Shown in pieces: positions 30,401 to 61,648 of a DNA stretch of 64,000 bases. Below the pieces are notes generated by a model that was given only the letters and a program-made list of their open reading frames with translations, searched no databases and had not been told where the DNA came from. Made by a program: the position numbers and the translations under genes. This stretch comes from Botryllus schlosseri (Eukaryota). The stretch spans positions 5,768,001 to 5,832,000 of the forward strand of contig CM119373.1 of NCBI GenBank assembly GCA_051294905.1. The letters are read 5' to 3'. Position 1 is the first letter of the stretch. Each line of letters starts with the position of its first letter.

Positions 30401-31845
30401 ACAAAAAAATCTTGCTTACTTTTGAATGCGAGGCCAGTTATTGTCCATCTTGCGAATCAAGAATTGCTTGGAATTTCCTGTACCAGTGAGAATACCATAA
30501 TGTTGAAACATGAACTCAACTTCAAAGAGAAAGGGCCACATTTCTCCTATTGTTGATACTGCAGCAGGTTCATTGATTGTCTTTCTTTGGAATGGATACG
30601 GTATGTAGTTTACATTAGCATTCCCACTTTCTCTCTGTCTGGAACTGCCTTTCTGCTTTCTTCGATAAGACATTTCTGGTCAGCGCTCAGTATGAGATGT
30701 ACTGGTAAGTTCAGTATTTTCTTGCTCCATTATTGAGGCTTTAACCTGTTTTACAATCTCGTTACAATGGGAAGCTAACAGCTTACGCAGCTCAGCCATG
30801 ATGTCTTGCACCGTAGTTGAAGGAATGAGGTTTTTGCACTCCATCCTCATTGCAAACATAATGCTCGGGTTATCATTCCTAAATTTCTCTTCCTGAGCGT
30901 TGTCGCTCGTTACATCGGCAGCAGGCAACAGATCCTGGGCGATTGAACTCTGGCTTGTACTAGCAGAATTATGGTTAGTTGGCTGAATCACATTGTTCTG
31001 ATCCGAAACGGTATGATATCGGCTAACATGACTGGAAAATGACGATGTCACGTCATACCTCTTGGAACAGTGCACTTGACGAATAATCCGCTTCCAATAT
31101 GGCTTTTCAGGTGACAAAAGATATCTGATGTTGAAGAAAGTTCCATACCTCAGATGACCACCGGTCATTTCAAATTTACTGCCATTTCTTTATAGTTAGA
31201 CACCAACACAGCTTCCTCCTAAATAAATCCGAGATTTCGCCTGACACGCGACCGCAGCACCTACAATCTACATCCTAGCACGTGAATCAGTAATTTGTCA
31301 CGACCTGGTGAACACAAATTCTTGGATTGTTACGTAACTTTAACGCAGAGCGAATGTTTGTAGTTGTATAATTGTATATCTGACTCCAAGATGTATTATT
31401 GACTTCAGAAGGTTGCGTTTGCGCTGAATTTCATTCCTGGGTGATTTGGCGCGATTCTGAGTTCTGATGCTTTGACGATATAATTCGGTTTTCAAATTCG
31501 TCGTGACAATAGCATTCGCATAATACAAATTATTATAAATTCTGAGCCGTTGATGATGAATTACGGTATCATCACAGGTGAGGCTTGGCCTATATGTATA
31601 CATCAGATCTCCTTTTACGCTTTATTTTTGAAGAATAAATACGCAAATTTCGTGGTTCGCAAATCTCATGGTCTGAAAATGTTCAATATTTAGTCATTCA
31701 GGAGCATTGACACACAGTACCAATAATCCGTATCATAGTAATAATTGACGGGTTTACTAAAAACGATAGTAAATTATGTTACTACAGCAATTCGTATTTG
31801 GTTTACTAATTAATAGGTGTAAATTTACTAATTTTTCTAACAGTG
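27408..31845 (-). mobile_element. Internally deleted CACTG-type (EnSpm/CMC) DNA transposon
   Basis: TIR CACTGTTAGAAAAATT..AGTAAATTTAC, TA 2-bp TSD (27406-7, 31846-7), AGTAAATTT subterminal repeats, internal spliced gene. Confidence 0.88.
27781..31168 (-). pseudogene. Spliced EnSpm-associated gene remnant (SAMD3-like C-terminal region), preceded by a probable transposase N-terminal fragment
   Basis: Phase-compatible GT-AG exons ~30680-30420, 29898-29736, 29560-29503, 28573-28408, 27892-27781 encode QRKTINEP..WPFLF..HYGILTG and ALAYLFVTFYVFNLEYP..ATLEFM*R. Premature TAA at 28410-28412, AATAAA at ~27768. ORF 30680-31168 has a C2H2-like CSKRY..SSFSSHVSRYH. Family assignment is from recalled motif similarity. 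Confidence 0.75.
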
Positions 31846-34443
31846 TACGCAAAGAATATTAGTGGATGGGTGGATGAGATCAAGGACAAGATGGAGGATG
31901 CTCCATTGTCTTCGGGCTGTGGGCCGTAGGGCGGGACGGAGCTTGTGTCTTGTGGTTGGATGTTAGTCGTCAGGAACTGGGTATGTTGGTGGCTTGTGGC
32001 GGTGGGTGAGTGTGGGTATGGATGGCGACTTCTCTCTGTTTGCAGGAGTCTCGGCACTTTCGGGGTATATCCTTATTGGATTAGTTGCCTGGATGTTTTC
32101 AGGGAGGGACAACACTTGGCTGTACGTTGGTCGTCTGGGAGTAGGTACGTTCGGCGGAGGAGCTGTTACCTTCGCTTTTGCGGTAGGGTAGTCTAGATTC
32201 TGTTGCTCCCGAATTTTTGGGATCTCAAACTCTCTTTTAAATATGGGACATCCTGTATATGCAGAGCTATCGTTACCACCACAATTGATACATTTCTTAT
32301 CGCAGTTACAGTCTTTATAATCGTGGTCACGACTTCCGCATCTCGAACAGGTTGTTTTGCCTCCACAGTACCTTTTTGTATGACCAAATCGATTACAGTT
32401 ATGGCATCGCAACGGTGGTGGGTTGAAGAGTTTCGTTCTAAAGCGCAGGTAGCCAATGATTACGAAACTAGGCGGGTCTGGTAGACTAAAGCAAATTAGC
32501 ACGCTCATGATATCTTCGAGTCCTTTATCAGTTCTTCTCTTCAAACGTTTCGCGAATGTTACTCCATAGCTGCTCAAAAACTCTACTATTTCATATTCGG
32601 AGAGGTCAGAGGGTACTCCGTTAATAACTGCCCTGGATGCGTGCTTCCTATTCTTATAACGTGACGTTGTTACTGGTATCAGGGACTTGGGTGGAGTTAA
32701 CACGTCTATATCAAGCAATTTTTTCACCTGTTTTTCATTGAAGCAGTTGATCAGCAAATCCCCCGACGGAAGAGGCCGAATCCCTTCGTCATTTCCAATT
32801 GCAGAGTATATAGCTTCATGCACTATAGTTGGGTGCCAGTGAGACATCTTCCTTTTCGAGCAATTCAGGATAACTTTCAAGTCGCGTTGTTCGTCTGCGG
32901 ATGTTTGGGAATTAGCTGTAGACCGTAGACTGGATCCACCGTCTTCTTCAATAAGTCTCGTCTTCGCCAGTGGTGACTTAGTTCCTGATTCATCGTCTTT
33001 AGTCGATGCTTTACGTTTCGCTGTGTTAGCAATCGCTTCCATGCGTTCGACATCCTCACTTTCCTCCATTACGCGTGATGCTGTGGTTGATTACAACTAA
33101 TGATCGCGGAAGATTGCTAGATACGTCCGCACTCCACGGCGGTCAGAGCGAAGTGTGCATATTTTGTGATAAATTTGTTGATATACAATGTTCTTTCCAT
33201 TTCTCTACTAGTTTCTGACGGTTACCCCTGACAAGTGTCAGCCGAAAATATTCGTGTTCATTTCAATATGAATATACTATTCAATAGTAAATGGAAGCTC
33301 TGTACCTCCAAGAACGTCTTTAATTATGGCATTATTACACAACTTGAAAACTGTTTAAAACATACTTCAAACAATGTGTTTTAAGCAATCATTTGTTTTA
33401 AATGCAACTCTAATATCGTGTACCTTCCTCGGTATGGCACCAGGCAGTTGTTTTCGGATACCACACATCAAATCCTATGAAGGTTGATCGAAATCGTGCA
33501 TCGCATCGTGTCCATAATGCAACCCTCAGTGCCCATAAATCAAGTCTTGCGTTCATCGAAGTAAGACAACATATAAATGGTAAAGTCTCCTTGAAAGTGC
33601 CATCAAGATACGGATTGCCGAAGTGTTGCAAATGAGACCGGACTTAAATTGGGGAAGAGCCGATGTGTGTCGCAATATAACGGCTCGGGATTGACGTCGG
33701 GGATTATGCTACGCCAGTTGTCACAACCAGAAACACTTATACGCAGTTTTTTAATTACTAAACACGCCTTGATTGCCTATTCAAAGCCAGGGATATCTAG
33801 AACTAGTTTCTAGATAACCCTGTTCGAAGCACTTATTAAAAAGTGTAACAACATAAATTTAAAGTCTGTAATTTGGTATTTCAATAAATTACATAACTTG
33901 ATAGGATGCAATATTTAACGGTTACCATATCTTTGTGACTCAAGCTCCGGACACTCTTCAGCGCCTTCTAGCGGGTTTTACAATGAGGTACATGTATTAA
34001 CAGTAAACATATTGTCAGTCACTATGACGTCACACAGCAAAGCTTTGCTTATTGATTTTATACAGGAGTGGATTGGAACATAGCTTCTTAATTGGGCTAT
34101 CTCGAGTGTGAGCTCTGGTGATTGCTTGGATCTGCAACAGATTTCTTCATGGGCCGGATGAATTCGACTGGCGGACCGTACCCGGTCCACCGGTCATGTG
34201 TTGACAGCCCTGCTATACTGCTGTAACGGTGCGATTATCTGATTTTGTGTTGTAACCGGTTTTGAAACAATGTTTTTCCAGCCTCCTTACGTTCAAAAAA
34301 GCACTGATCTTGGGCCCGCCATAAGGTAATCGATGCAACTTCTTAGGGGCTTGTTACTATATTCATATGGTTGTTGAATTTTGAGAATGAATTCTTTCAA
34401 AAATATTTTTTTTACATACATTACTATTAAAGGCAACAACAGG

Positions 34444-35605
34444 CGGTGTTGGGATCAAGTCACTACCTTAGAGTCACGAGTTTGTTTGTTGTTTTGGGTA
34501 TTCATGGTGACTACAATGGTCATTTACACCAGGCCGATATTATTTTTATTTTCCGTAACTGCCGACTTATAGCACGGCCCACCTCTAGGCTTTTGTAAGA
34601 CACCGTTGACCCGGATGAGGTGGCGAGGAGGAGCCTAGGTAAACCTGCAACACTTAGGTGTCGGAATTCGGAAGTCGACCTCGGTCGGACTCGAACCCGC
34701 ACCCATTGGTGTTGCAGCCGCGGATTATACCACTGCGCTATCTTGCCACTAAAGTCACGAGTAATTTCGAGTCAGTGCAAATTTTGACTCGAGTCAAGTC
34801 AAGTCAATCGATTTTCCAAGGTGACTCGAGTCAAGTCAAGTCAATCGAGTTTAGGAGGTGACTCGAGTCAAGTCGAGTCAAGGCAAGTCAAGTCACAATT
34901 CAATTCAAGTAGCCATTTTGAAGTATGAAGCATGATTACATCATTGCATTTTGCTAGCTGTTTAAAGTACAGGTTGACTTGTCAGTGCATTTTGAACCGA
35001 TCAACGAATATAGAGTAGCCTACATATATACGAAGGAAACAGTTGCATCGCTCATATATACGTAGAACTGTCAAACTACTTAACTGCATATCCTCAGTTT
35101 ATAGTTACGAAGTAACCTGCCAAAAAAGACAATAGAAAAACGAATTGACAAAACGCAATACATGATTTACCTACTTCATGCGATACCATTCGAGTCAGCG
35201 CCAATAGCTGACGAGTGTATAATATAGATTCGAATTCAATTTGAATAAAAAATAAAAAATAAAAAATATGTTTTGCTTTTAAATCACTTTACTACCATAC
35301 ACACAACGTAAGCTGTAAGCTCCGATCACTTCGTTTGTGGTCAATTTATTTTTGCGAGAACAACTGAGGCATGAGTGGTCGCTCTCGCGGGTTACAACAG
35401 AGTTTCGTGAACAATCCGAAAATATGCAAAATACAGTGATTTCTATCAATAACGATTATTTAATGACTTGAAATCGGCTTGTGAATTTCGCTCAGAGTCA
35501 TGAGTCAATCCAAATTTCTAATGCGCCTAGTAAAGTAAAGTCAAATCATTTTTGCAAAGTGACTCGAGTCAAGTCATGTCATACGAGAAAGGTGACTCGA
35601 GTCGT
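34444..35605. mobile_element. GAGTCAAGTC-repeat MITE interrupted by a SINE
   Basis: Colinear with the uninterrupted copy at 58472-59410. Confidence 0.85.
34482..34749 (-). mobile_element. Full-length tRNA-derived SINE
   Basis: A-box TAGCGCAGTGG (34730-34740), B-box GGTTCGAGTCC (34687-34697), (CAAA)n tail, 13-bp TSD TA(G/A)AGTCACGAGT. The empty site is visible at ~58500. Confidence 0.88.
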
Positions 35606-36457
35606 TTGAAATAAAAATTTCCGAAGTATTTCCCTAATTTTTCCCGATGCAGGGATTGAAACCTCGCCATGAAATCCATCTTATTCTGTACATAACCACT
35701 ATTTGAACAGCTTCTTGGAGATACAGAACTTCAATATACAATTGAATTAAACCCGAATATTTTCGGCTGATATTCGTCATAAATCGGATAATGATATACC
35801 AGTTCTTAAAGCTCGGTTATCAGATTTGGGGCATTCTTGTTGCGGATGCCCTATCGACAAGGCTGTTTTTTTATGAACAAGGAGTGTTTCGTTGCTATCA
35901 AAACATCACGCTCCAACCCTGAAATTCATATCACCAGTTATATTGGTATGTTAATGTTCAGTTGTTCATGGTCGAAAATGTTTGCTCGTAAATATATACG
36001 TAAACCCGAACAGAACAGGTCTTTTCATGACAGTCTTTCTCAGGTTGGAAAACTGGGATCCGTTCTTTGGCGCATAACATTTCTCAATACTTTTAGATTA
36101 GGATTTCACTCTGACGGTAGAAATTCTCTGCGGACCGATCAAAATGCCGTCGCGGGCCGATATTTGTTTGCAATCCACGAATCCCTGCCATTCGTATCAT
36201 AAGCCCAAAACTCGTTGTAATGTTGAAAAGTATTTTTCGTTATACTAACCAAGCTTTCCTGTTTCACCATTTGAAAATTTCATTATGGATTACATCGGTC
36301 TTGCAAACATATTTTTCAGGTTTTTTCCAGACTTTTATTACTTCTGGATCACTTAATTGGAATATGAACTAAGATATGCTCAATCACGTCAAGTTTTATG
36401 AGAAAAATCGACTCCTTTGATGTGGCAATTAGACATAATGGTTTGTTATGTCTACCG

Positions 36458-37843: not shown

Positions 37844-39772
37844 GTTGCGAGCCACGGCTTTAATCATACCATCATTTACAAACACACACTCTATTTTCGG
37901 AGGAAATCAAGTCCGGCAATACTCGATTCAAGAACGAGATGGAATAGGTAACGGCGTACGCTGGAGTTATCCATTTAGTTCTATCGGCTTACCATGTAAG
38001 CGGGTACTATTCGCGCCAATCGCTAGCATTTCTGAGTCATGGGATGAATTTATGGTAAATAATATTGCGACTTGTACTTACATATTCCAATATCATTGTT
38101 TCATCCTCCCTCGGCCCACGATCAGATCTACAAGCGGAAAATTTAGGGCAGAAAAATAGCAAAATAATAAAATATATACACTTGTACATCTTAATCGAAG
38201 TTGACATTCGTTTCTTGCGGGTTAGATGCGAGAGGGCCAATGCTATTTATGACTCTGTATATTTGGCGATCTCCAGTAAAGATTTTCCATTTTCCATCAC
38301 ACGTGCGAGACGAAATTAAATATAAACTCCTTTCGAGCCCAGTATTGAAATGTGATATGGTGACCATATGTCCCGAATTTCACTGTAAACAATGCGTCCG
38401 GAAGGAAATTCTAAAATATGCCTTAATGTCCGGAATTTTGAAGGCTTGAAGTAGGTTCGATTTTATTTCCGTAAATTACCATAAACAATAATATTTTTAA
38501 GCAGATATATGCTATTCGAAAGTTTTCTTCGCACTGCGCGCTATTTAGTGCCCCGAATATTCGTGGAATATTCATGGACACCTTGCACCGCCCTCGCAAA
38601 AAAATGCAATAAAAATGAATAAAAAATAACCATGATTTACTGAGATAAGTCTAAGTGTAATCACAATCATAAGATAACGGTATATTCCTAGAGTTGGTTA
38701 AGCTCGTTTGCGTGCTTTAGTCAAAAACAGTTGTTCTAAACGTGGTAGTCGTTTGCCTTTATTCTGGTGATCGCGTAGATGTTCGACGATATCAGCTTCC
38801 AAAATAGGCCGTGAGTAAGTCTGGGCAATTTGACCTATTTAAGTAATCAGACCAACAAATTTTCGAGCTGGGCCAGGGAACATTTTCAAATCGGAAATGA
38901 CGTCGCAACCATCAAAGGTTGTAGAATAACGGATGTGCAACCTGTTAGCAGTGTTGGGATGACTCGAGTCAAAAATCGAGAATGATTTCGCAAACATTAC
39001 GAAGTCACCCTGATTGACGTTACTATCTCCATATTTTTATTTTTTTCACTAACCCAACAAAACGTCTCTATAAACAGCAATATGTTTGTATCAGCAGGTT
39101 ATTGGAAAATTCTCAATGAACATGAATTTCCACACTACGATAGTTCATGTCAGACGACTATTATGATGATATGAGTCATGAGGTTTTAGCAGTTGCGAAA
39201 CTGCCTCATGCTTTCTCAAATTAAAAAATAAAATAAAAATTAGGTTATCAACCAAAATTTAGAAGTCTCGCGGAAGTAGTGAGGGGAAGCAATTTTGATG
39301 CAGGCCCTGACGCTATTTATGTTCATCGCTCACCACTAGACTATCGCGATGTATATTAGCACTATGTGTTGTAATGTGCTTCCGAGAAATAAATAACATT
39401 CATTATACGTTAGATGATACTTTCCTCAGATCTATGTATGATTTTGTGTGTATTTCAGACTATGTATGTTCGCGAAGATTGAGTATCGCATGGATAAATG
39501 CATCATCACTAATTAATTACTTGGATGCGACTTGATAATATTAATCCCTAGTAACGTAGTCAGATGAATAACATAATTTACTCAACTATCCACGATTTTG
39601 TATGTATTTAGGATTAAAACGTCGGCAGGAACGCATAAGCCAACATCTCCCCAGATTTATCAGAACACGTGCATCACGCTCAGTGAAAAGCACACCCTTA
39701 ACTCATCCGCTTAAGATTGATGCTGATCGATCAAAGGCCATTAATTTTGCCATCGGCAAACATCTGTTAGAT

Positions 39773-44363: not shown

Positions 44364-45954
44364 ATGTACACAATCCCCAGCGTTATAACGATAGGGACAA
44401 ATTAGTCACATGTACGCGAAACTAATGGATATAACGACGTAGACAAATTAGTTTCATGTATGCGGTGTCCGAGGTTACCAATAGAAATAGACACTTTGAG
44501 CGTTTTGTTTTAGGTTTCGTGATGTCATCATACAGGACTCAGGCCACTATCTTGCAGTAGGTTACGGGATCTATTCTCAGTCTCATGGTACTTTCCTCAG
44601 ATATTCTATTATGTGTATTTAGGGCTAACGCGACTTGACAATATTAACGCGTTGATGCTGTTCCATACCAATTTGTCACTTAATTTCGTAAAGTAGGTAC
44701 ATAACTTCTTCTATTAATCTCTTACACTTCTACTAAACTTCAACACTTAATCTTGTGAAGTATAATGAAAAGTGGAAGTAATCGAAAGATTCACGAAGTT
44801 CCGATACACTATATTTGAGTTTTTAAAAGTTATTAATCCCTCACTCCGACTTCAATTTCTTTGTCATGAAAACATTTACTTTCAAAGGATTTTCAATAGG
44901 ATTTTTATGTACCAACAATCACTGTTATTCATAAAGACAGATCAGATGAGGTGCGGCCAACCCGTGGTCAACAGGCCAAATGCGACCCGCGAGAAGGTTT
45001 TGTGTGGCCTGCTAGGTAACACTTGAAATTATTTGTGACAACCAAAATTTGATTAGCCTGACCGCGAAATTAAATGATGACTAAAACACCAGTTCTGGCG
45101 CATTAGCGTAACCAAGGACCAGCCACATTTATCGCAGATCTTCGTATGCGCATAAAGTAGAAGTAGTATGAGTAATGTGCACGACGTGCGCATGCAAGGA
45201 TTATAATAAACAAACAAAGATTATCAATATAATAAGTAATTAAAGAATTAGCTCATTCTCAATTTTGCAGCAATACTTTCATGACCCTGTGTGCGGCAAT
45301 CAAAAAGGGGGAATAATTAACGATAGAGAGAAAACGAACAAAGAATCTTGATTGACCTTTGTACTCAGACATGAGACTTGAGTCATTCTACTTGTACTTT
45401 TCCACTCGCCTCCTGATTCTACCTGCCTTTATTCTGGAGTTTGCGAATATGTTGAACGTAATCAGCTTCCAAAATATCGATTGACCTCTTGTACTCTGGC
45501 CAGAAGTGAAACTTATTGATTAGTAATTCTACTTGTACTTTTCCACTCATGATTTAATCTGCCTCGCTTGACCTCTGGACAAGGACACGAAACTACAGCT
45601 GACTTCGGTCGTACGCGACTGGGCTTGGTAATAGTTGCCTGCCGACAAATCGCCCTGACCTATCGTTTTGTGGTTCAATTTCGTGACGGGGCTTTGGGAA
45701 TAATTGCCTGTCAAACCACCCTGGTTGACTTGTCGTTTCGCGATTGACTCGATTTCGTGCACGGTGGAGCATAGGAATAATTGCCGGTCGTGACGTCAAT
45801 AAAGTTTTCTCCTGATCGGTGAGATCCTGGTGCGTGTTTTAGGTGTCTATACGTTCGGCTGTGCATAGTGACGCTTGTAGTCTGTTCCATACTGTCGTAC
45901 TTGCTCTTGCTTTGTTGTCGACTTAAATAGTAAGGAGAAATGATCTGTTCTGGT

Positions 45955-46530
45955 TATAAATGTGTGTGTCATTTTGATTCATATCGAGAACCAGAAAGAA
46001 TGTCGTGTATTAAAAATAGGTATTAGGCGCCCCCGACATAGATTAACTTAAATACAGTAACATTAAGAATATAATAAGTAATTAAAGAAATAGCTGATTC
46101 TCAATTTTGCTCGCACCAACGTGTTAACTTGCGGTAGTACGTATCTAGTGATTGGTGTAAGCAACAACTGCTGTTCCACACTTTACCGCGTTCTAGCGTC
46201 TTCATATAGGACAGACAATCCCAACCAAACAATGTATCTGTTATTATTATAAATATGTGTGTCATTTCGAGTCATACCGAGAATCAGAACGAATGTCGTA
46301 GTAGAAATTTGTATTAGGCGACCCGACATAGATTAGCTTAAATAACGTAACATTATGAATATAATAAGTAATTAAACAAATAGATGATTCTCAATTTTGC
46401 TCACATCAACGTGTTAACCCCCCGGTAAAACGCACCTAGTATTCGGTGCAAGCAACAAATGTGGCTGTTCCATACCTATACCGCGTTCTAGCGTCTTCAT
46501 AAGGACAGACAGTCCCATCCGAACAATGTA
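45955..46530. repeat. Subterminal ~290-bp tandem repeat sharing a motif with the TIR
   Basis: Two units starting TTATAAAT(G/A)TGTGTGTCATTT. The motif AATATAATAAGTAATTAAA...ATTCTCAATTTTGC occurs at ~45227 (in TIR), ~46068 and ~46358. Confidence 0.85.
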
Positions 46531-47564
46531 TTTATGATGGGGGTGTTTTTACTGCTTCACGTCTGGTCAAGCGTAATCATACCAGTGCCTATAAATGATA
46601 TGTAATTTACCGAGGGATATTAATTTTGTATGCTGTACAGTGTACATGATGGACAACTAGAATCGATCTGTTGTCGTACTGATGCTTTGCCTGTCTGTAC
46701 GATAGATATGGATCACGAATTCACCGCGCACTTGTCATTCGAGGGCGACTCATTTCGCTGTAGACAATCAGTTGTGTTCGCGTGTGCCGTAACATATCCT
46801 CAACACTTGTTATGTCAACACCTCCAAACATATTTACAATGTCATGCTAAGGGTATATTGCTTCGGCGGGGTGTTACCGTCAGAGAATCGCTGTGTCATC
46901 CCTTTCGAGCCTCGTATTTCCCGTTTGAACTCGGTAACTGCGAGTACGATGTCAGATTCAATTGTACAGTGACGAATCGGGGTAGCTCGCTTCATCGGGG
47001 ATCAGTGGACTGACCTTATTTGGCTGAAACGCGCTCGGTTTCGGTGGTGCAATAATGGGAATGAATTGTGACAGATCATACGTGATGCGATCTATAGCCT
47101 GCTTTCGGTGAGGTGTAATGAGTGGGAGATTTCGAAATCAGAATCCACTGCGACTATAAGGTTGCAAAAGCAAAGTCCAAAAAATCCGACTGGCACGTAA
47201 AGTCCTGGTATTTCCATGTATTAGGCTGGTAAAATGTAGCATAAATCCGACTCTCAAAGACACTTGGCCGCATCCAGTCCGGGTTTAACCAAAACTGATG
47301 AAATCTGCGCCGGGTCCGGAAACGAATCGTGACCACCCCCGTCCAGACAAAACAGTTCTGCTGTAAGGGGAGTGTCGCTGTACATTAATTTGCGTACATC
47401 GAGACTTTGTATCGACTCATTGGCGGACTTCTGTTTGTCTGTACAGGTGTTATTAGTGTAATTAGATTTGCCACCACAAGGAGCATATTGGCAAAATCAC
47501 ACAACGATAACAACTTTACCCGTCAACAACTCTCATGACTTGTCGTTGGTACGCTTCCAATTTC

Positions 47565-50500
47565 GATGTGGTGCGATATACGCGAATCAGCTGTGATCAA
47601 TCGAGCGTGACACAATCGATGTCAGTCATCAACCCGCCTGTTGACAAAACTCGCGTCTTCGGGTTGACAGCAATACAATGCGATCCATTTGATGTCCCGT
47701 CGACCCTCCTATTTAATGGGGTTACCATACGGCCTCATTCAAGGGAGCATATGTCCTCCTTTTCCCAGATATGTCACCCCTTCGCCCGAATGTACTCTCT
47801 TTCTGTCAATTTGTCCTCCTTGTTAGCTTAACATATCCAAAAAAACACCACGAGTAACGCAAAATGTGGGCCTAGATTACAAAAGTCGGGTATGTAGCCA
47901 AATCGGAAAAATGACGCTATGATGGTATTGTGCAGGCTATTACATGTATACGGGGGCCTGTGTAAACATGTGAATAGTAAAAGCGACCCAAACTACCGTT
48001 ACATGAAAAAGATCGAGCGCACTCGACCATGTCGGGGTATACCCACCATAGTACAGCCAAATGATCCCATGTCGTACCGAGAATAGCCGGGGTGGTGATA
48101 CATCATTCTCACAAGATGTACTTTGGAATGCGTGTGAAATCGTCATCGTCCGCTACTCGACTAAAGCAGAATATAGCTTTGAAGTACTCAAGTAGAAGTA
48201 GCTTTAAAAGAAATGTCGGTATCGTGAAATGGCTTTCTATCCTAATTATAAAGAGTAGGTCCCCATAAAACTGTCGAGTCAAAATACAGTTTCGAAGCGA
48301 CCCGGTAATTTGTAAATCTTATTTATGGGTTGCACGGTGTGTTAATTCATTAGAGAGAAGCAGACACGGCGGTGCCTGTATAACGAGGCTGTTCTCAAAT
48401 CCACATTGTCTTCGCTATTATCGGGGAGATATGGCTTTGCAGTGACATGGAGGTCGTTAAAATATATTGGTTAAATACGATTTATTCCTCATATATGGGA
48501 ATCAATGCGTGAATAATGTATCGATTCAGCAATTCGCTCCGCCAAGAACTTAATTTTCTTATATCCGGCCCGCCGACCGAAGGAGTTGCCCGCTCCCTTG
48601 TATAACACATATGTAAATGATACAATAGCGACAGCTAACGGTTGTCAATCATCCATAAAAAATACAGCTGACCAGTAATTTATACAGCTCTCAAGGATAA
48701 ACTAGGAATATATGTGTGAGTAACCTCGATTGACCCATGAGGCAAGTTTAGACACGAAAAGCTTTTTGAGGTGTGATATAATCCCAATAATTGTACAGTA
48801 TTTTTCCACGGACACATAGCGCAATCGAAAACGGAGTTCGTCTGTCTCATTCCCTGCGGCTGACTCGAGCAAAAGTATAGGGTATAAGTGACCATGAGTC
48901 CATGCCAAGCCTGTCCACCGCTTTTGAGTAGGTATTTGGAAAGACCGGGTCGTGATAACCTCCATACAAGGCCTAATAGTTCTGCGTACAGCGAAACTTT
49001 GTAGCGACCTATTTGCGGGCTGTGCATGTGTTGTTAGTGCAATCGTGTTTAGCCCCACAAGAACGTAATCATTTGAGGATGAATAAAATCTTACCCCACA
49101 ACGATACCAAATTTACCCCCTCAACAACTCCAACGGTATGTATTTATGTAGATTTCATATTTTTATGAAAAAGCTAATCGACCACAAGATACTGTTACGT
49201 ACCATCTCTTTCGGTAGGGTTTGTTAGTATTGTAACATGATGATCGGGGGCTATGGTCTTTTACACTAGGTCTAAAAGGGTAGGGGTATTCGTTAGTGAT
49301 ACACCCGTCTGACGGTGGGGTATTCGACAAAATCACTCTGTTTTTACTACGGAAACCATGATCACACTTACGAGCTCTCATCACTTGTCGTACGAATGCT
49401 TGTAATATCGGTGTGATGTACTCAAAACAGCTGTGATCACTCGAGTGTGACGCGATCGAAGTCAGTCCTATCAGCTGTCTGAGGAAACTCGTATACTCAG
49501 TAAGAGAGAGAGAGAGAGTCTTTATTTTCATCCAACCAAAATACATAACACACGGCAGTGATGGTGGTACAGAAAATCTCGCACAGTATTCGGTATTAGA
49601 TAGGAATGATCGATAAGACCGTGAAGGTCATCTAGTCTGATCACACCAGCATCAAACAGGTACACTTGACTCTAAACAGTCTGGCTGCAAAGGTTGACGG
49701 CAATGCGATATATTTGATGTCCCCATCGATCCTCATACTAATGGGGTTGGCGTACGTCCTCCTTCTCCAGGAAAATATCCTCGCATAAATGTACTCCTTT
49801 TTGTGAATTTATCTTCCGTTTTAGCTTAAAATACCCAAAAAGACCGTGAATAACGCGAAATAGGGACCTACGAGAAGCGGGTAGGGTCTATCTTGCTGTT
49901 TTCGCATAATTCTGTTATTCAAATGTAGGATTTTGGTGTAGGTCTGATTTATAACTTTGTAAAAGTGAGGTAAACTCATTACAAAATTACTTTCTGCTTT
50001 TAAAGTCAAACGTGCAAAGAGTAAGTAATTTCACCTGAAACGGTTGAGGAGTAAGTTACAACGACTTGGATATATAGCACTAGTACCGAGTACTCGAATC
50101 AGTAGCGTCTTTTTACACCATTACTCAACCCAAGTCCACAACATACCTAAAAACGTGGTATCGTTTTGTGTATTTCAGTGAAGCAAATTCAATTTAAATC
50201 TCAAACCACTTTATCCTGTGCCCGACCTCATTAAAAATCGATCAAAACCTGATCACCACCTGCGTAATCAATCCGCTGTGTGTAAAATGGTATACCATGT
50301 TCGTGTCGATCGTATATTAATTTTGCGTGCGATTTGCGTCGATCTGCTGTCGAACAGATATACTTTTGCCTACTCCTGAAGTATACAGTATTACCATGTT
50401 GTCTATATTACGGCTCTGTGGTTAGACAATACAGATTAGAGACGCCCCGGACTGATCAATATAGTCGGATACTCCCAATCTGCTCAGTCGTGGTTCTTGA

Positions 50501-51450
50501 CCCTCCAAGACCTCTGTTAGCATCAGTCTATCTCACTGTTTGTATTGCCAATTTCAAACTCCGTAATAGTGATCACTCGCTCATGTGTAGAATATAGAAA
50601 TTGACGCCTGGACTATTTGCACGAGCTCATGGTTTATGGTAAACTTACTAAAGCGGAAAGTCACTGCCAAGTTGAACATTGACTGATCGTTTTCTTGTTA
50701 TCGTCGATATTCGCTCGTACGTTCTTTCATGCCTTAGAATTTTTGTTATCATCGAGTGTGGTCATAAATAGACAGGGGGGACAAATTCGATGCGTTCAAC
50801 ACAATACGCGTTTGCCACATCTCAGTCCGGACCGTAACCGATCGTTTACCGCACCTACGATAAATGTCGCTTTTTACTCATAGGTAAGCCGATGATCTGT
50901 GAAAACACAGGCGCTAACGTGCGATTTCGTTATTTATTCCTTCAACGTCACATGACCGCCTATGAGGGCTTTTTGGGTGCCCACCAATACAGTGTTGAAA
51001 CGTGATACATAGGGCCCCCACTGCGTGCTATACGCCTAAATAAATATGTTTACTCGAGTTTACACCTGGTGTGGAGCAGTGAAGTGGATGCAGAAAGTAA
51101 ATAAGACGAAACAAACCAGTTGACTACATCGATTAATATACGGGAGTTGATAAATTTCGTCAAGTGACTTTTGAATGGATGTTATTTGTCTGTTGTTTGA
51201 TGGATAAGATTGTATTCAATCATAAACTACTAATATACTTCTTGTGGTGCTAAACCTGATTATACAAATGAATCAAACAAACAGTATTCCGCCAATTGGG
51301 AGTAGTTGCCCGTCGTCGTGATTGATCTCCTAGTTCGCGGTGGTAACGAAGAATGTATAACAGAAAGTGTAAATAGCGACAACTAACTGTTGTCAGTCGT
51401 CCACAACAATGCAGCTAACCAGTAATCTATAGAGATTTCAAGAATCGATA
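47565..51450. repeat. Old local duplication
   Basis: 47565-47870 matches 49425-49865 (the latter interrupted by a ~190-bp retro-like insert with a (CT)n tail at ~49500-49690). 48580-48700 matches 51300-51445. Confidence 0.7.
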
Positions 51451-51458
51451 ATCAAATG

Positions 51459-54400
51459 TGTGGTGACCTTTCGTGGAAAGCGTAGGTCGACGAAGACGAA
51501 ACTGCTTGACAGCTTTCTAGGTTTTTATTAACTGAAATTCGGCTACAATAAACTTTAAAAAACTAGGACATACGCACTGGACAACACAGATATAAGCAAC
51601 TGAGGTACGAAAGGAATGAACAGAGCGAAGTAAACTAATCACAGTAATCAGCACTTATACAATCACAACAATCACCACATTCAACCCCACCAAGAAAAAT
51701 AGGGACTAGCTTTTACGAGGTCCCTTCCCCGTAACGTTCGGGAGCGCGCCTTAAGTGCGTGGATCGGCGCAGTGGAGGTTCTGCGACCTCTAAGCTGCTA
51801 CTGGGCTGCACTACTTCGTCGCGATGCGGAGAAAATGTTTTACAAGCAATGCCATCTTTTTCGCTGCTGGACGACGTGGTAAGTTCGTCGGAAGATGGCT
51901 CCGTTGTGTCGCAGACAGAGGAAAACTCTTTTTTCTTTCCCTCAAGCGCCTCAGAAGACTTTGTAGAAACAGGGTAGGGTGCGAGATCTTTAACGGAAAC
52001 CGTTGATTCTATGCCGTATCTGTAACGTATCAAAGCGTATTTAGGATTGGCATCCAATAGTTCTACACTTCTACTTCATTAACGAGGGGGTCGCATTTGT
52101 TCCGCACAAAATTTCGTAGGAGTACGGTGCCGCCATGAAGAAGCCAGTCGGGAATGGAGTCGCCCACCATGGATCTCCTTTCAAACTTGAAGAACCTGTC
52201 ATGGGGGGAACAATTAGTTGCCGTGCACAAGAGCGACCGGATGGAATGCAGAGCATCCGGCAAAACCGATTCCCAATGGTTCTCCGACAATCTCCGACTT
52301 TCCAAAAGCAACTTGACGGATTTCCGCGAAGTCTGATTAAGCCTCTCGCATTGCGAATTGCCTGTGGGGTGATAAGGAGTCGACTTGCTGGTGGCAATAC
52401 GCTTGCATGTCAGGAAATCGGTGATTTCCTTAGAAAGAAATGAGGCACCCCTGTCACTGTGTACATATTCCGGTACACCGACAACCGAAAACAAGGATGA
52501 GAGACAATTGACGACCGTTGACGACGTCATGTCGCGACAAGGATAAGCAAATGGGAAGCGACTGTATTCGTCAATAATAACAAGTACGAACTTTCTGGGT
52601 CCATCAACGGGACCTTTGAAATCGATGCTAAAACGTTCCCGTGGTAGAGTAGCTTTTATCAACTTGTTCGTTTCATTAGACATGAAGAACCGAGGTTTCA
52701 ATTTAGCACATATTTGACAATTAGCACAAGTTCTTTTAACGTCCTCCATGGAAAGAGGTAGATTCTTGGATCGTACAAAGTGATCAAGTTGTCGAATCCC
52801 AGGGTGACTCAGCGCTTCATGGATCTCTTGAAGGCTCATGTTTGGCTGGCCTGGGGACGAACAGCAAACACGAGACAGAGTATCAGGCCCGATATTCTCG
52901 GATCCAGGGCGGTGAATTATTTGATACTTTAGCGGACTTAACTCCAGTTTCCACAGAGTGAGCTTTGCATTTTTAATCTTACTCGGATGATCTTTTCTAT
53001 ATATGAAGGATAATGCCTTTTGGTCCGTTATCAATTTAAATTCGTTTCGGTTCAAGAGATAATCCCATTTTCGAAGAGACTCGACAATGGGCAAAGCTTC
53101 CTTTTTTACAGCGGAGTATTTCATTTCACATTCAGATAGCGCTCGAGACATGAACGCAACAGGCCTGCCCTTTGGCTTAAAATAGAGGCGATCGCAACTT
53201 CGGAAGCACCGCATTCAACTTGAAACGGTTCGTCATCATAGATGCAGCTCAAACAGGCGCGAAGTAGATTCTGTTTTAACAGTTCAAACGCGTTTCTCTG
53301 TTTTTCAAGCAATGGGAACACGACATTTTCACAGAGGGGCTTCACTTTGTCGGAAAAGGACAGAATCCATTTTGAATAGTACGAAAACATGCCCAAACAG
53401 CGCTTCAGACTACGAGTATCGCTTGGAGCCGGCATTTACATTAAGGGTCGCAAATGATACGGATCGGGTCGAATATCATTGTGGGATATCAGATGGCCGG
53501 GCAGTGAGAGCTTCGAAACCCCAAACGCAAATTTATTTTTATTTAGAGTCAGACCTGTTGAATCAGCGGCGGACATGAACGAAGAGAGCCTCTCATTGTG
53601 CTCTTTCTGATTCCTTCCGTATATAGTTTTACATTATCCAAGTAAGCTATTGTGCCTTTCAAGTGGTTGTCTGCTATGAATTTATCAATGAACCGCTGAA
53701 ATGCAGCGACCCCATTGGTGATGCCGAAGGGTAGGCGACGAAATTGATACAGACAACCATCAGCTTCAAAAGCTGTGAAAGGTCGGTCGGCCGCAGAGAG
53801 AGACACCTGGTGATATGCAGACTTGAGATGGATCGTGCTATAAACATCTTTTGCAACTTAATTGACAATATCATCAATTTTGGATAGCGGATAGGCATCC
53901 AAAGGGGTGTATCGATTTATCGTTCCCGAGTAATCAATCACTAACCTTTTCTTATGTCGAGGTCCCTTTGGTTACCGAAATTGGGGTCGCCAGGGAGATA
54001 CCGACTTCTCTACAACGCGTTCATCCAGGAGCTTCGACACCTCGCTTTGTACGAAAGATCGATCCACTAAGCTGTACTTTCTCGACTTCACGGCTACAGG
54101 CTTTACAGCTGGATCGACAAACTTGAATATTTCAGGCGGATCACTCACTCCACGGCTACAGGCTTTACATCTCGATCGACAAACTTGAATATTTCGGACG
54201 GATCACTCACTTTAGCGGCAGCTACGGCGCAATGGTTGCGTCCTAATAGGAGATCTCCCTTCGGTCCACCGAATTCAAATATAACTCTCGTTAGCTGTTT
54301 GAGGAATTCCAAGCCGATAATTACGTCGGCGCACAATTCATCAACGATGCAAAATTGATTTGCACCGTAATATTCATCTTCAATACAAAGTGTCGCGTAT

Positions 54401-55721
54401 GCGTGACCAATAACTCGAGCAGAAGATGACTTTAATGCAAGGGTAATAGTGTAATCCCGAGGAGTAAGAACGAGATTGAGAATTTTGGCGAACGATGAGC
54501 TAATGCAGCATTCGTATGCTCCCGAATCTACAAGTACTTTGACCAACCTCTCAGCAACAAAAACTTGCAGCGTCGAACGCCTCAAGGAACCGGGTACACC
54601 GGCAGGCGAAGCCAAATTGAATTTGCAAACTTTGTCAAAGTGACCCCGTCGGCCACATCTCGAGCATTCGCTGTTTCGGGCTGGACAAAACTTGCGAAGC
54701 ATCGTATGGAAACAGCCACACAATACGAACTTCTTTTTTTCAGGAGACTTCTGTAATACGGCCAATTCAGATCCACAAGGCCGCACCAGCGATTGGTCAG
54801 GCGTATGTGAAGTCTTCTGCATTTCCTGATTTCCCGGGACCATGTTAGCGGTAGGAGGCGATATTTCATAGAACGAGGAAAACGCTTGCGCCCGTTCAAG
54901 AGAGCCTGCTATATGCATGGCTTTTTCGAGTGTTCACTCATCATGTTCGAGAAGACGCAATCTAATGCCCGAGGACTGCAAGCCAGTAATTAGGGCATCT
55001 CGCACGGCCTCCATTTTATGCACTTCTGCATTAACAGCTTCAAAATTGCAATCACGCGATAGAGCGATCAACTTTTGTGAGAAATCAGCGACGGTCTCAC
55101 CAGAGTCTTGCTTAGCAGTTGCGAGTAAATGTCGAGCATATATGACGTTCTTTTTCTTTCGATATAACTTGGTTAAGTGTGCCATGGTAGATTCGAACGT
55201 GCCATGATCTTCGATCAAAGCGTACACGCTTGGCGATATATAACCAATCAAAATAGCCAACTTATCGAGAACTACTTCGGGGCGGCCACTGCTAGATTCT
55301 TGTCCAGTGTCCGTGCTGCTGGTCGATGGTAAAGAAGACTCTGCAGCCGATATGAAGCTCGACAACATTTTGTCCCAGTGGTTGAATACTTTCGAAGAGT
55401 CTCGAGAGCTCGGTAATAAATCTAGGATCGGCACGCGGATATACTTCTCTTGAGAGAAAGCCATTCCAGAGTCGATTGTGTCAAAAGCAGATAATAAAAT
55501 TGTGGTGACCTTTCGAGGAAAGCGTAGGTAGATGAAGACGAAACTGCTTGACAGCTTTCTAGGTTTTTATTAACTGAAATTCGGCTACAATCAACTTCAC
55601 AAAACTAGAACATACGCACTCGACAACACAGATATAAGCAACTGATGTACGAAAGAAATAGACAGAGCGAAGTAAACTAATTACAGTAATCAGCACTTAT
55701 ACAATCACAACAATCACCACA
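51459..55721 (-). mobile_element. Full-length degenerate Ty3/Gypsy LTR retrotransposon
   Basis: 221-bp LTRs 51459-51679 and 55501-55721 (TGTGGTGA...TCACCACA; 13 differences counted), 5-bp TSD AAATG, purine-rich PPT-like GGTGGGGTTGAA, PR-RT-RH-IN order. Confidence 0.96.
51713..55464 (-). pseudogene. Gypsy gag-pol, multiply frameshifted
   Basis: gag CSRCGRRGHFDKVC, protease LVDSGA, RT LPFG..NGVAAFQR and AYLDNV, RNase H ITDQKAL, integrase HEALSHPG..CQIC, IDFKGP, HSDRG, NSQCER. 62-bp internal tandem duplication at ~54089-54210. Confidence 0.95.
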
Positions 55722-57169
55722 AAATGTTCATTGCACGGTCATGAGTATGAATATGTGCACTGTGCAGTGCGTAGCAAAGTTATTGAAATACAGTCAACAG
55801 TTAAAAATTTTGTTCCGCTCACTTTAGTCCAGATGAATCGTAAATTAAATGTTCATTGCACGGTCATGAGTAGGATGAGTATGTGCAGACAACTCAATAA
55901 AATATATATTATTGCGTAATAAATGAATTGCAGATGTACTACTTCATCAACATTTTTTCTATTATTACTTTTTCAAATCAATACACGACACGATTGCGAT
56001 GTAATGAAAAGATAGGAGGGTACCGAAACGACTTGGAGTTGTGTTTTAATCAGACACCCCCCTTGGCCCTAGCCTACTCTACACTGAAGTACATGAAACG
56101 GATCGCATAAAACGCACATCGGTTTTACTTTAGGTTTAGCTGTAATGTACAGTATTTCGATACCTAACGATTCAACAAATACTGTACTGTGTTTCTGTGC
56201 AACACACACATATGCAGTGCAAAGAATTAAATCAGCTCATGGATATTGCTCTGTCTATTGCCCAAATTTTGTATTTTCGAATTCTCCCATCAACAATCAT
56301 TACCTTCTATTCCCTCTATTCCCCCAACTATATCCGTTGGTATTGTTATTGCATTCTGATTGCTCTCTTTGTTATGTTGTGATGTCGCGATAAGGGGCTC
56401 GCGAGATTTTTCACTGTCATAAATGGGAGGGTGTCCACAAAAGTCTGAGAACCATTACTCTAAATCAGTGGTCCTTGACCTTTTTTTCTCCAGCGCCCCC
56501 TTTCAAAAATTTTCTGGGTCTGGCGCCCCCCTATTTTAAGGACTGCAGTAAAAACAATGGGTAAGTGGTCGAAATCCGGTTTGGGGTTTGGACTTCACTA
56601 TTAGACCACTCGACTAATTAACGGTATAATTGTATGTGCTATTTTCGGGATCAAATTCAGGTTGTTATACCAACCATCGGTAAGGCCTACGCCCTACGGG
56701 CTCATAGAGGAGATAGATCAACGCATCCCGAATTCTCCTCTGCGATTGGCAATATGGGAAGTTAAATGCATTGGGTTTTGTTTTATTGCTTCGTGTGACT
56801 ACTAAATCAACTGAAAATGTGGTGGAGATTTGTGCTTCATAAATTTAGTACTGCACCAAGTTCTTAACTTCAACATGAATGGGGGTAACAACACCAAATA
56901 GTATCATCCTTTATGATACGATTAACAAATAATCTGATGATTTAATTTTGTAGCTCCCAAATACAAGTATATTTGGTAGAGACAAGGTTAAGAACCAATG
57001 CTCTAAATTGAAACATTTGATTGAGACACCATATTATTGGCTAAACTATTTCTTCTCAGACTTTCCATAATGTGGGCTTGGACATCATCAGAAAAGGTAG
57101 TCCAATATGAATTTCAGCTCTCATAATATCATCTGTAGCCTGTTGAAGTCACTATGGAAGTGTCTGCAG

Positions 57170-58365
57170 CAGTGGTTCCCAAACTTTTTCGGCTTGTGGC
57201 ACACTACAAAACTTATAAAACTCTTGCGGCACACTTGGACCGAGAAAAGATGCTTAAAAATATCGACGTTATTTTATTACATGAACAGAACATATACAAT
57301 AGAAAGGAGGTTGAATTGTTCACAAACTTACCCGCATTTTGTAATGCCCATCTTTAGATATTGAAAGGATTTTTGGATATGGCGAACAAAACCACTTGCG
57401 TTGTAATGGCCAAACAAACATAATCAACAACAACAACCCGCATTTTTTCATCAATTCCAAGCAGTGACTCTCGTTTACAGCTTTTAATTTAACTCAAGAA
57501 AGATAAGTCCTGTCCACCTAGCCATGAAGATGCAAATTTTTGACACAATATTGATTGCATTTACATTGATTATGGAATAGGATTTGCTAGCAGACAGCTA
57601 AAAATCACACAATTTCTGTTGAAGAAGTATCTTCAAATTTTCGTAAATCAAATAGCTGCTCTTCTGCGGAAATATTGCTTGATTTATTAGGATGCCAAAA
57701 CTCATTTCATTGTCACTTATGCTTATTTATCAGCTTTTGAAGAAGTTAAAGTGTCTGTAAGTCGCGTATACTAGGCTTCAGGCCTTTTTCAATATATTTA
57801 TACAGTTCTTTTCCAAAACTCCGAAAATGTTCGCGGCATACAGTTTAGGAATCACTGGTAGGGCTGGGCACAATGATTCGAGTACTCGAATCTGAATCGA
57901 GTATTAATTTTAATGATTCGAGTCGAATAGTAAAATATGACTTTTTCGAGTACTGAAATTTACCCTCCTTGCAACTGAAAGGTAATTTACTAACGGGAAT
58001 TATAGCTTTAATACTATTTTACACTGAGGAAGCCTGAAACCTTGATTGGCCGTGTCGCAACCTACGAGACATAAAAGCTGCGAACGTTACTGGAAATAAC
58101 ACATTTCCGAAGTCGTGTTCGTCTCAGAACATTGTCAAGAAGTACAATGAAATCGGTATGGTCGAAAAAATATCAAAGTATCTGAAATGTGCTGGATAAC
58201 AGGCATTTTATGCTGTTTGTGGTGGCATAAAAACTAAATATTTGAATTTTGACACAGTACATTCTGTTGTGACATCATAATAAATTCGAATACTCGACTC
58301 GAAGCGTAATACGTGATTCAGAACGAATTTCTCAGGTACTCGATTTTGCCCAGCCCTAATCACTG
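57170..58365. mobile_element. hAT MITE with a second MITE (57859-58358) inserted in its right TIR
   Basis: Outer TSD GTCTGCAG / GTCTACAG. Inner TIR TAGGGCTGGGCA with perfect TSD ATCACTGG, which duplicates the outer terminus. Confidence 0.88.
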
Positions 58366-58471
58366 GTCTACAGAATCACTTGAGTAGTCCCGAGTCATAT
58401 ATGCAGCCAGCAGTGCGCGTGAGATCGGAAGTTCGGGAGGAATTTTCGGGGCGACGCCAGTCACGCTGAGC

Positions 58472-59410
58472 CAGTGTTGGAATCAAGTCACTACCTTCGA
58501 GTCACGAGTCATTTCGAGTCAATGCACATTTTGACTCGAGTCAAGTCAAGTCGATCGATTTTCGAAGGTGACTCGAGTCAAGTCAAGTCACTCGATTTTT
58601 GGAGGTGACTCGAGTCAAGTCGAGTCAAGTCAAGTCAAGTCACGAGTCAAGTCACAATTCGAGTCAAGTTGCCGTTTGAAAGTATGGGGCATTCTTACGT
58701 CATTGCATTTTGCTAGCTGTCTGAAATATGGACTGATTGGTCATTGATTGTGAACCGATGAACGAAAATAGAGTTAAATATACGCAAGAAGGCGCTGTAT
58801 CGCTCATATATTCGTAGAAATGCTAAGCTACGTAAGTGATTACATAGCATCAGCTCATAGTTACCAGCTAAAATAGAGTTTAGAGAAACGAATTGATGAG
58901 ATGCAATACATTACCCATTTACAAATTGATATGATACAATTCGAGCCTACGCTAATTGTTCATGACTATATAAACTATATTCGAATTCAATATCACAAAA
59001 ACAAGAGGTTTGGTTGAGGTATGAACACAGAACTGAAATAGAAATTTTACTGTTAAATTACATTACTATACTAGTTTACGACAGCGTAGGCTGTAAGCGT
59101 CGATCACTTCGTTTGCGGTCAATATATTTGTGAGAGAACAATGGAGGCTTAGTAAAACGCACGATAATTGAATTATTGGTCGCTATCACAGTCTACACCA
59201 GCGTTTCGCGAACAATTCGACCATAAGCAAGATACGGCGATTTTTATCGACAGCGATTGCTTGATGACTTGAAATTGACTCGAAAAATTTTGCTCCGAGT
59301 CGCGAGTCAATCCACATTTCGGATACGCCGAGTCAAGTCAATTCATTTTAGCAGAGTGACTCGAGTCAACTCAAGTCATACGAAAAAGGTGACTCGAGTC
59401 TTTGTGAACG
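58472..59410. mobile_element. GAGTCAAGTC-repeat MITE
   Basis: Starts CAGTGTTGGAATCAAGTC. Colinear with 34444-35605. Confidence 0.82.
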
Positions 59411-59698
59411 CTAGTGACCTGTGTTTTCAGATTGTGTATATTGCTCGATAAACCTTGTACAGCATACGTTCTACTCTTTTCGAGCGTTCGGGAGTCGTTG
59501 TCGTCATAAAGATCATACTCGCTACTATCCAGGGAGCAAAAAGAGGTAAACTACGACAGTATGACGCAGACCAGAATCGTCACCTTGCATCGTTTCGTCT
59601 GGCCGAACGCGTTGACAATCCGTCTAAAACACGAACCGGGATCTCACATACGGATCCGAAGGAACAAATATTATACTGACGTCATGTTTGACGGGCAA

Positions 59699-59893
59699 GC
59701 GACACTTGAGCATGCGACACTTGAGCATGCGACACTTGAGCATGCGACACTTGAGCATGCGACACTACAGCATGCGACACTAGAGCATGAGACACTTGAG
59801 CATGCGACACTTGAGCATGCGACACTTGGGCATACGACACTTGAGCATGCGACACTTGAGCATGCGACACTTGAGCATGCGACACTTGAGCAT
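59699..59893. repeat. Minisatellite, 13 x 15 bp (GCGACACTTGAGCAT)
   Basis: Direct count of units. No spacers. Confidence 0.97.
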
Positions 59894-59975
59894 TTGTCAT
59901 TTCTTAGTGTGTAGTTAACTAGCGTCAAAATCATGGATTTATACCAGTCCGAAAATGATATATCTCACCTCCTCC

Positions 59976-60425
59976 AACCCTAATATCCCCCCTCCCAACT
60001 TTGATACCCATCACCTCAACCCTATTCTTGGGATACCGTAACCCTAACGCAAAGCCTAATCCTAACCCTAACTCTAACCCTAATCTTGGGATACCTTAAC
60101 ACCTTAACCCTAACCCTAACCAACCCTAATATCCCCCTCCCAACCCTAATACTCAACACTCATCACCCCCAACCCTAATGTTGGGATACCTTAACCCTAA
60201 CCCTAACCCAGACCAACCCTAATATCCCCCCTCCCAACCCTAATACTCATCACCCTCAACCCTAATCTTGGGATACCTTGACTCTAACCCTAACCAACCC
60301 TAATATCCATCCCCCCAACCCTAATCTTGGGAAACCTTAATTCCAACATGGACCCTAATAACCCTAACCTAACCTAATCCTAACCCTAAGCTAACCCTAA
60401 TCCTAACCCTAACCTAACCCTAACC
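59976..60425. repeat. Degenerate telomere-like (CCCTAA) satellite with higher-order structure
   Basis: AACCCT runs interspersed with recurring TTGGGATACC and ATATCCCCCTCCC blocks. Confidence 0.9.
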
Positions 60426-61648
60426 GAAGTCAGCTGTAGTTTCGTGTCCTTGTCCAGAGGTCAAGCGAGGCAGATTAAATCATGAGTGGAAAAGTACAAG
60501 TAGAATTACTAATCAATAAGTTTCACTTCTGGCCAGAGTACAAGAGGTCAATCGATATTTGGAAGCTGATTACGTTCAACATATTCGCAAACTCCAGAAT
60601 AAAGGCAGGTAGAATCAGGAGGCGAGTGGAAAAGTACAAGTAGAATGACTCAAGTCTCATGTCTGAGTACAAAGGTCAATCAAGATTCTTTGTTCGTTTT
60701 CTCTCTATCGTTAATTATTCCCCCTTTTTGATTGCCGCACACAGGGTCATGAAAGTATTGCTGCAAAATTTAGAATGAGCTAATTCTTTAATTACTTATT
60801 ATATTGATAATCTTTGTTTGTTTATTATAATCCTTGCATGCGCACGTCGTGCACATTACTCATACTACTAGTAGAATATTTCGTAGCAGATTTACTTGAC
60901 TTGAAATTTTTTTCAGCAATTCGCATGATTTATTGTCACTAGATTTCTTGTATTTAGTATTGGATCCCCCTCCTGAAAATTATATGTACGCGTTATTTAC
61001 GGAATTATGTCAAACTATATTCGCAATTCGGAGATAACGTGTCGTCCAACATGCCACTTCGCTTGTGCGCTCGCAGCGAGATCGTCGACGACGAAACATT
61101 TGCACAAAATGATAGAGGCTATGTCTAAACGCCGAATAATCCTGTCCTTGCCAAATGAGCCCAGTGGTATACAGATGCGACCCCCAATATATGTAAATAC
61201 CATATTTATTGATAGAACTCATTAATTACCTTTAAGAAATTACGCCCTTAGCGCAACCAGGGCGTGACTGCACACTATGCACAGTTGCATGATATAATTG
61301 TTATCAATTTTAAAGCATAGGAATATAAGTCTTGTTTGCAATGTTACCTAATTCGGTTCGCTCCTATCTGACGACTAAAAAAAAGTTTTCAACATTCCAG
61401 TTGCCCGCGCAATGGTTCGTAAATCTAATGTGTCCCTTTGGTCGAAAAGGTAGGCCAACCCTGGAGTAAATGCATCGGCTGCTTTTGTAAAATTGTAAAA
61501 TCGATGTAAATATAACCAAACGATGCTTCCCATTTGACAAAATTAAAAGTATTTGTAGTGTAGCTTAGCTGCTGGAATCGAACAAATGATGAAGAAAGAC
61601 TGCAAGTCGTAGTCCTTGAATACTCGATTAAGTACATATAGATTAGAC

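Follow-up and report, generated by a model that had tools for sequence, protein, structure and literature searches.

The stretch of DNA analysed here, referred to as the window, comprises 64,000 nucleotides of Botryllus schlosseri contig CM119373.1 (positions 5,768,001 to 5,832,000 of the forward strand) and contains a decayed Gypsy retrotransposon nested within a larger unit whose ends resemble those of Maverick/Polinton elements. The carrier unit spans positions 45162-60869 of the window (15,708 bp) and encloses the Gypsy at 51459-55721, the left part of the carrier as far as the Gypsy amounting to 6.30 kb. The features of both elements are collected in Table 1.

The Gypsy lies on the minus strand and is bounded by two direct long terminal repeats (LTRs) of 221 bp each, with TG...CA ends and with AAATG on both sides. 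The two flanks of the element were once continuous, since, once joined, they correspond to a tandem paralogue, a short distance to the right, in which the target site is uninterrupted. The order of the protein domains is collinear with that in the relatives P0001, P0003 and P0004, and relatives of the element occur across many animals. The nearest intact relative found, P0001, consists of a single open reading frame (ORF) of 1,225 amino acids (aa) and is 74% identical across the RNase H-integrase part. Compared with P0001, the Gypsy displays four frame changes (near 54151-54169, 53615-53627, 53169-53172 and 52066) and four in-frame stops (at 54936, 53974, 53860 and 53438), which is what the "heavily frameshifted" ORFs of a preliminary description of this DNA amount to. 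In addition, a 62-bp tandem duplication is found inside gag-pol at 54085-54211. No canonical TGG primer-binding site follows the 5' LTR (55470-55500), and priming may be non-canonical or the primer-binding site may have decayed.

The carrier is framed by a pair of terminal inverted repeats (TIRs) with the termini AGTAGT//ACTACT, showing the (AGT)2 end motif of Maverick/Polinton elements, and the 6-bp duplication AGTAGA flanks it on both sides (chance ~3e-4). Vertebrate Mavericks display 5'-(AGT)2//(ACT)2-3' or (AG)3//(CT)3 ends, a 6-bp duplication, TIRs of 46-1,447 bp and lengths of 12.7-24.6 kb (PMC8097293). The core genes sought in the carrier were those for protein-primed polymerase, integrase, ATPase, protease and capsid proteins. 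None of the interior ORFs with a length of 45 aa or more, 94 in all, had a Pfam match to such proteins, although strongly decayed or Pfam-less genes could escape this search, and none was found by Pfam in the 12 of 12 carrier frames read through stops, where the sole match was that of a 15-mer array to pentapeptide models. The open frame of this 15-bp array is most likely a DNA-repeat artefact. The earlier label "Polinton-like" is based solely on the size of the unit, its end motif, the length of its TIRs and the 6-bp duplication; no Polinton protein was detected. Judged from its sequence, the carrier would work like a non-autonomous Maverick derivative, for which dependence on a helper is predicted.

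A passenger older than the last equalisation of the carrier ends

The Gypsy predates the last event that equalised the TIRs of its carrier. Upon realignment, the LTR pair differs by 13 substitutions in 221 positions (7 transitions and 6 transversions, 0 gaps, Kimura two-parameter distance 0.061), whereas the TIR pair differs in 2 of 448 columns (one substitution and one one-base indel, 0.4%), and both counts, including the LTR identity of ~94%, agree with those first reported. The two proportions differ significantly (Fisher p=2.3e-5), and their 95% intervals, 3.2-9.8% for the LTRs and 0.05-1.6% for the TIRs, do not overlap. TIRs as old as the LTRs would be expected to show ~26 differences, and the probability of observing two or fewer is 7e-10; with the lower bound of the LTR interval, it is 7e-5.

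The age given by the LTRs is independently supported, as nonsense codons, codon-position spread and family distance agree with it. Four stops in 1,258 codons correspond to d=0.028 (95% 0.008-0.073), while the LTRs give ~0.03 per copy. The 13 coding-site differences listed are distributed 5/4/4 over codon positions 1/2/3 (P=0.001 against 75% third-position), and this even spread is what neutral decay predicts. For the family distance, 4 of 21 listed sequencing runs were compared, namely the contigs of X1, X10 and X13 and the raw reads of X16. Relatives of the Gypsy in other runs are 3-9% distant, with listed contigs at 4.7% (X13, 157/3,340) and 5.1% (X10, 125/2,438) and the best related pieces, among the matches listed, at 3.0-3.6%.

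A young Gypsy whose LTR divergence had been inflated, as a chimera of two copies, through conversion of one LTR by another copy or by hypermutation, is hardly credible. Chimerism or hypermutation is unlikely because the clocks agree, the LTR differences are unclustered and evenly spread (longest identical run 58, p=0.23) and only 1 of the 13 is a CpG transition; the matching AAATG duplication, and a coding region that gives the same age as the LTRs, likewise speak against a young element. Methylation-driven decay of the LTRs was also considered and is ruled out by the single CpG transition together with CpG that is not depleted.

Table 1 Features of the carrier unit and its contents, in window coordinates.
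Feature	Position	Strand	Description
Carrier target-site duplication, left copy	45156..45161	+	AGTAGA
Left TIR	45162..45609	+	448 bp, starts AGTAGT
Left interior	45610..51458	.	Non-coding, old internal duplications; abundant related DNA in other samples
Inverted-arm remnant, left partner	45781..45952	+	Decayed
Gypsy target duplication, left copy	51454..51458	+	AAATG
Gypsy 3' LTR	51459..51679	-	Purine-rich tract just inside
Gypsy gag-pol	51716..55464	-	Broken; protease, reverse transcriptase, RNase H and integrase in Ty3/Gypsy order (Pfam)
Gypsy 5' LTR	55501..55721	-	
Gypsy target duplication, right copy	55722..55726	+	AAATG
Tandem paralogue of Gypsy target site	55834..55887	+	Uninterrupted
Miniature inverted-repeat transposable element (MITE)	57170..58365	.	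8-bp target duplication at 7/8 identity
hAT-type MITE	57859..58358	.	Perfect 8-bp duplication, TIR 15/16; ~77% to copies 1683-2202 and 6759-7265
AGTCA-repeat MITE	58474..59408	.	~73% to copy 34753-35610
Inverted-arm remnant, right partner	59505..59698	-	Decayed
15-bp tandem array	59695..59893	+	13.3 copies
TTAGGG-type array	59955..60422	-	Degenerate, 22 perfect hexamers; abuts right TIR
Right TIR	60423..60869	-	447 bp
Carrier target-site duplication, right copy	60870..60875	+	AGTAGA

Probable copying between the carrier ends

The identity of the two carrier arms changes in a step, being 99.6% in the outer 448 bp, followed by no match for the next 170 bp and then by an older inverted remnant at 78% (45781-45952 versus 59698-59505; 129/166 aligned identity, with many gaps). 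The remnant scores 329 against a shuffle maximum of 179 (blastn E 2e-10), and on the right side tandem arrays separate it from the 99.6% TIR. A permissive search of the left against the right interior for a long decayed right arm gave this one remnant only. Four further pairings fell short of the shuffle maximum, and another just reached it (280 vs 276). The carrier is not a palindrome, its inverted portion consisting of the 448-bp TIRs and one remnant of 170-190 bp only.

At site 45505, both TIRs of the window share a letter that is absent from all aligned contigs of X1, X10 and X13 (23, 2 and 1 contigs, respectively). As this private letter is common to both arms, it argues for copying between the TIRs rather than conservation. 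Two contigs of X13 covering the left interior are 3.0% distant (22/745), like the Gypsy. As far as these sequences can tell, this suggests that the carrier copy aged together with the Gypsy and that one end was afterwards copied onto the other. Plain cut-and-paste transposition leaves TIR differences untouched, so young TIRs require copying from one end to the other, with or without a move of the unit. The preliminary description had taken private mutations shared by the TIRs as the mark of gene conversion and as an argument against a move. One such letter was found, at 45505, yet it does not separate the two, because end-to-end copying in Maverick-type replication predicts the same, and shared private changes therefore do not refute a move.

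None of the 21 listed runs contains half of the window's words, and it could be asked whether the TIR identity is an artefact of assembly or polishing. This is very improbable, as polishing with family reads would draw both arms to the common letter, while both retain a letter seen in no aligned contig, and two differences persist between the arms. Even taken together, an artefact and a wrong Gypsy clock are most unlikely to account for the age gap.

Probable movement of the composite

We consider it somewhat better than even, with a probability of roughly 0.55, that the arms were recently equalised by end-to-end copying, probably while the proteins of a helper Maverick replicated the composite and inserted it at this position. 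The Gypsy first inserted into a copy of the carrier, as its nesting, the AAATG duplication and the continuous flanks show, and then decayed neutrally to ~3% per copy, as measured by four clocks; the left interior seems to have decayed similarly, judged from two contigs only. Later, the outer 448 bp would have been made identical, as indicated by the 2/448 differences, the one private letter in both arms and the 78% remnant. The end type and what is known of the family suggest that this equalisation may have taken place during protein-primed replication via a panhandle intermediate, with polymerase and integrase acting in trans, and may have ended with integration and a new 6-bp duplication. 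The arrays at 59695-60422 would mark the stop of pairing between the two ends. Equalisation of the TIRs up to both edges counts for a move, and hitch-hiking of the Gypsy in the carrier is probable. The preliminary description had the Gypsy inside the unit before its last move; the part that stands is that the Gypsy is older than the last TIR equalisation, according to the LTR, nonsense and family clocks, while a move with the Gypsy inside is not established.

Replication of Mavericks through a single-stranded racket is a proposal ascribed to Kapitonov and Jurka in 2006. A single-stranded racket intermediate has been proposed for their replication (PMC4196379), and the panhandle is the usual model of homology restoration in protein-primed genomes (PMC11886824). 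Resetting of the ends during a move would be natural, since both replication models provide for it.

The main alternative is that the ends were equalised in place, with no move after the Gypsy insertion, through gene conversion or through repair of a break or an abortive excision templated by the other arm. This is possible but distinctly less likely. It accounts equally well for the private letter at 45505 in both arms, it agrees with the fact that a second Gypsy-bearing copy was not seen in X1, X10 or X13, and an old insertion could still have its 6-bp duplication intact. However, the converted tract must erase the ~26 expected differences to both edges of a 448-bp repeat whose arms are 14.8 kb apart, and a literature search for a precedent yielded no more than homogenised internal tandem repeats (PMC4079207). 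In addition, X1 may contain the flank without this copy. Two X1 contigs of the carrier flank show 0 differences (179 and 163 nt), and X1 is without the window's letter at 17 of 28 listed sites inside the unit, as against 0 of 12 outside it, in the flank (p=3e-4), a contrast that would loosely fit a young, unfixed insertion.

Several observations weigh against a recent move of the composite or weaken the case for it. When matched for depth, the X1 contrast shrinks to 6 of 12 sites in the unit versus 0 of 6 in the flank (p=0.054), and neighbouring sites are not independent. X1 also holds near-identical contigs inside the unit, at 57643-57788 (0/146) and 55807-55949 (2/143), and because one of these is without differences, zero-difference contigs are no proof of orthology; the carrier unit may be a mosaic. 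The contig comparison leaves aside the right end (58401-60875) and the right flank, and the variation comparison lists 40 of 623 variant rows (one in a TIR) and 15 of 215 joints, along with 24 of 84,619 pieces. Hence, the case for end copying has one TIR site, 45505, among those 40 rows behind it, and none of the 15 joints crosses an empty Gypsy site. Neither a donor nor another copy with the Gypsy was seen, X1, X10 and X13 being without the Gypsy letters of the window, and no helper Maverick with the carrier's ends appeared when viral and metagenome contigs were scanned for the TIR motif (0, 0, 1 chance and 0 matches). The intact 6-bp duplication is no age clock, as it would survive 5.9% divergence with P=0.70, and direct evidence for the panhandle is lacking according to PMC11886824.

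The only metagenome match of the motif scans, L001, is a chance match of 22-31 nt in unrelated coding-like DNA and was rejected. As for the relatives of the carrier, summed contig depth is higher over the left interior than over the Gypsy by 19.6x in X1, 22.3x in X10 and 6.5x in X13, values that reflect depth, not copy number. This excess suggests that most relatives of the carrier lack this Gypsy. The raw reads of X16 covered 10 of 30 bins, mostly MITEs, with no TIR and almost no left interior.

The right side of the carrier allows for a further scenario, in which the right TIR is new. The TTAGGG-type array has higher-order units of 87-93 bp and is joined in register to the right TIR, with only GGT common to array and arm. 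An old one-ended or broken element terminating in such a telomere-like array could have folded back via these three nucleotides, copied 448 bp of the left end and then integrated, the Gypsy still being cargo and the TIR length private to this copy. The in-register junction through GGT would be explained in this way, as would the stretch 45610-45780 on the left, which has no partner on the right. Nevertheless, three bases are a weak match, 448 bp is ordinary for a Maverick (mean TIR 402 bp; PMC8097293), and the 78% remnant implies that, well ahead of the arrival of the Gypsy, the right side was already an end of Maverick type, leaving this scenario improbable and behind equalisation in place. 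The array itself may stem from a break that was healed, or it may be the microsatellite portion of some other repeat.

Beyond this copy, end-to-end copying with helper proteins could be extended to the speculation, for now rather doubtful, that long-decayed, gene-less Maverick derivatives are remobilised in this animal by helper Mavericks, fold-back copying resetting their ends in every round while the accumulated contents, including whole dead LTR retrotransposons and MITEs, are carried to new sites. The composite might also be packaged, 15.7 kb being within the Maverick size range. If true, nested LTR pairs would provide an internal clock with which genome data could be used to test the Maverick panhandle model, and the age of a Maverick-type element could not be read from the identity of its TIRs.

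Related systems and other contents of the window

In its end motif, 6-bp duplication, 448-bp TIR and 15.7-kb length, the carrier resembles the vertebrate Maverick/Polinton elements described by Barreat and Katzourakis in 2021 (PMC8097293), which also contain secondary transposon insertions. Unlike these, it has no detected core genes, its interior consisting of the dead Gypsy and MITEs besides non-coding repeats. Cases of an older passenger in a younger carrier have already been published. The hobo_AC hAT elements of the anole are young carriers of 9-15 kb with travelling pieces of older transposons, but they move by cut-and-paste and what they carry are fragments, explained there as captured genomic DNA (PMC3014272), whereas the present passenger, an LTR element of full length, has a target duplication and a clock of its own, and the long ends of its carrier look reset. 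Introners of dinoflagellates likewise include passenger transposons in Maverick/Polinton-like proviruses, and of the 197 pairs tested there, ~10% appear to be older than the host copies (PMC11957031). There, age was measured against host copies and not against carrier TIRs, the full-length carriers shown retain genes, and the hosts are protists. Similarly, Ngaro retrotransposons are nested in endogenous mavirus-like elements, that is, in TIR-bounded, protein-primed virus-like elements, and their use of these as vehicles was raised as a question (PMC8547959). They differ in being tyrosine-recombinase retroelements, apparently targeted, that reside in gene-bearing virophages, compared with one dead Gypsy in a gene-less element. 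Finally, Mavericks of nematodes carry non-viral cargo, but these are autonomous, with functional cargo genes and horizontal transfer shown (bioRxiv 10.1101/2022.07.12.499685). A literature search that reached few subscription papers found no case in which the age of an LTR passenger had been set against that of Maverick TIRs.

A move of the unit would make it a dated case in which a gene-less Maverick derivative carried a dead LTR retrotransposon to another site as cargo. Moved or not, the identity of Maverick-type TIRs dates the last end-copying event and not the element, which matters for the dating of insertions. In the drop of arm identity from 99.6% to 78%, end homogenisation would have left its footprint in the sequence; for this part of the replication model, direct evidence is scarce. 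As this is a single locus and passengers in carriers have been described before, the general lesson is modest unless repeated across the genome.

The right interior of the carrier also contains MITEs, which the preliminary description had as diverged and already inside when the unit last moved. They are inside by position, but only one gave a hint of its age, and a weak one (the 7/8 target duplication). The hAT-type MITE is inserted in the very end of this same MITE, such that its 8-bp duplication overlaps the outer terminus. Within the TIR, a 51-bp part at 45424-45476 shows 83-90% similarity to a segment of a MITE family found at 26754-26804 and 38754-38806, and at 45424, within the left TIR, 96 contigs of X1 come to an end. 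Two subterminal tandem units of 290 bp, 84% alike, lie at 45939-46531, each with a 70-bp copy of TIR positions 45199-45268. The old duplications of the left interior are 77-81% alike and pair 47530-47627 with 49375-49467, 47789-47874 with 49788-49870, and 48624-48698 with 51372-51445. A 72% inverted pair outside the carrier (26703-27152 and 38368-38850) was considered as an older Maverick and ruled out, as it resembles two MITE copies without AGT ends.

Rfam gave 0 matches in the 64-kb window. Elsewhere in it, a 296-codon open frame at 5905-6792 encodes a pentraxin / laminin-G-like domain; for the pentraxin-like ORF (5905-6525), no homologue was found at E<=0.001 among longer proteins. A 169-codon open frame at 30683-31189 has a weak, sub-threshold match to Phytoreo_S7 (E 3e-4). 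On the minus strand, pieces of one or more long interspersed nuclear elements are found at 17716-33090. They comprise an endonuclease (24584-25816), a reverse transcriptase (22566-23279), a zf-RVT domain (17716-18192) and a gag-like ORF without a Pfam match (31966-33090).

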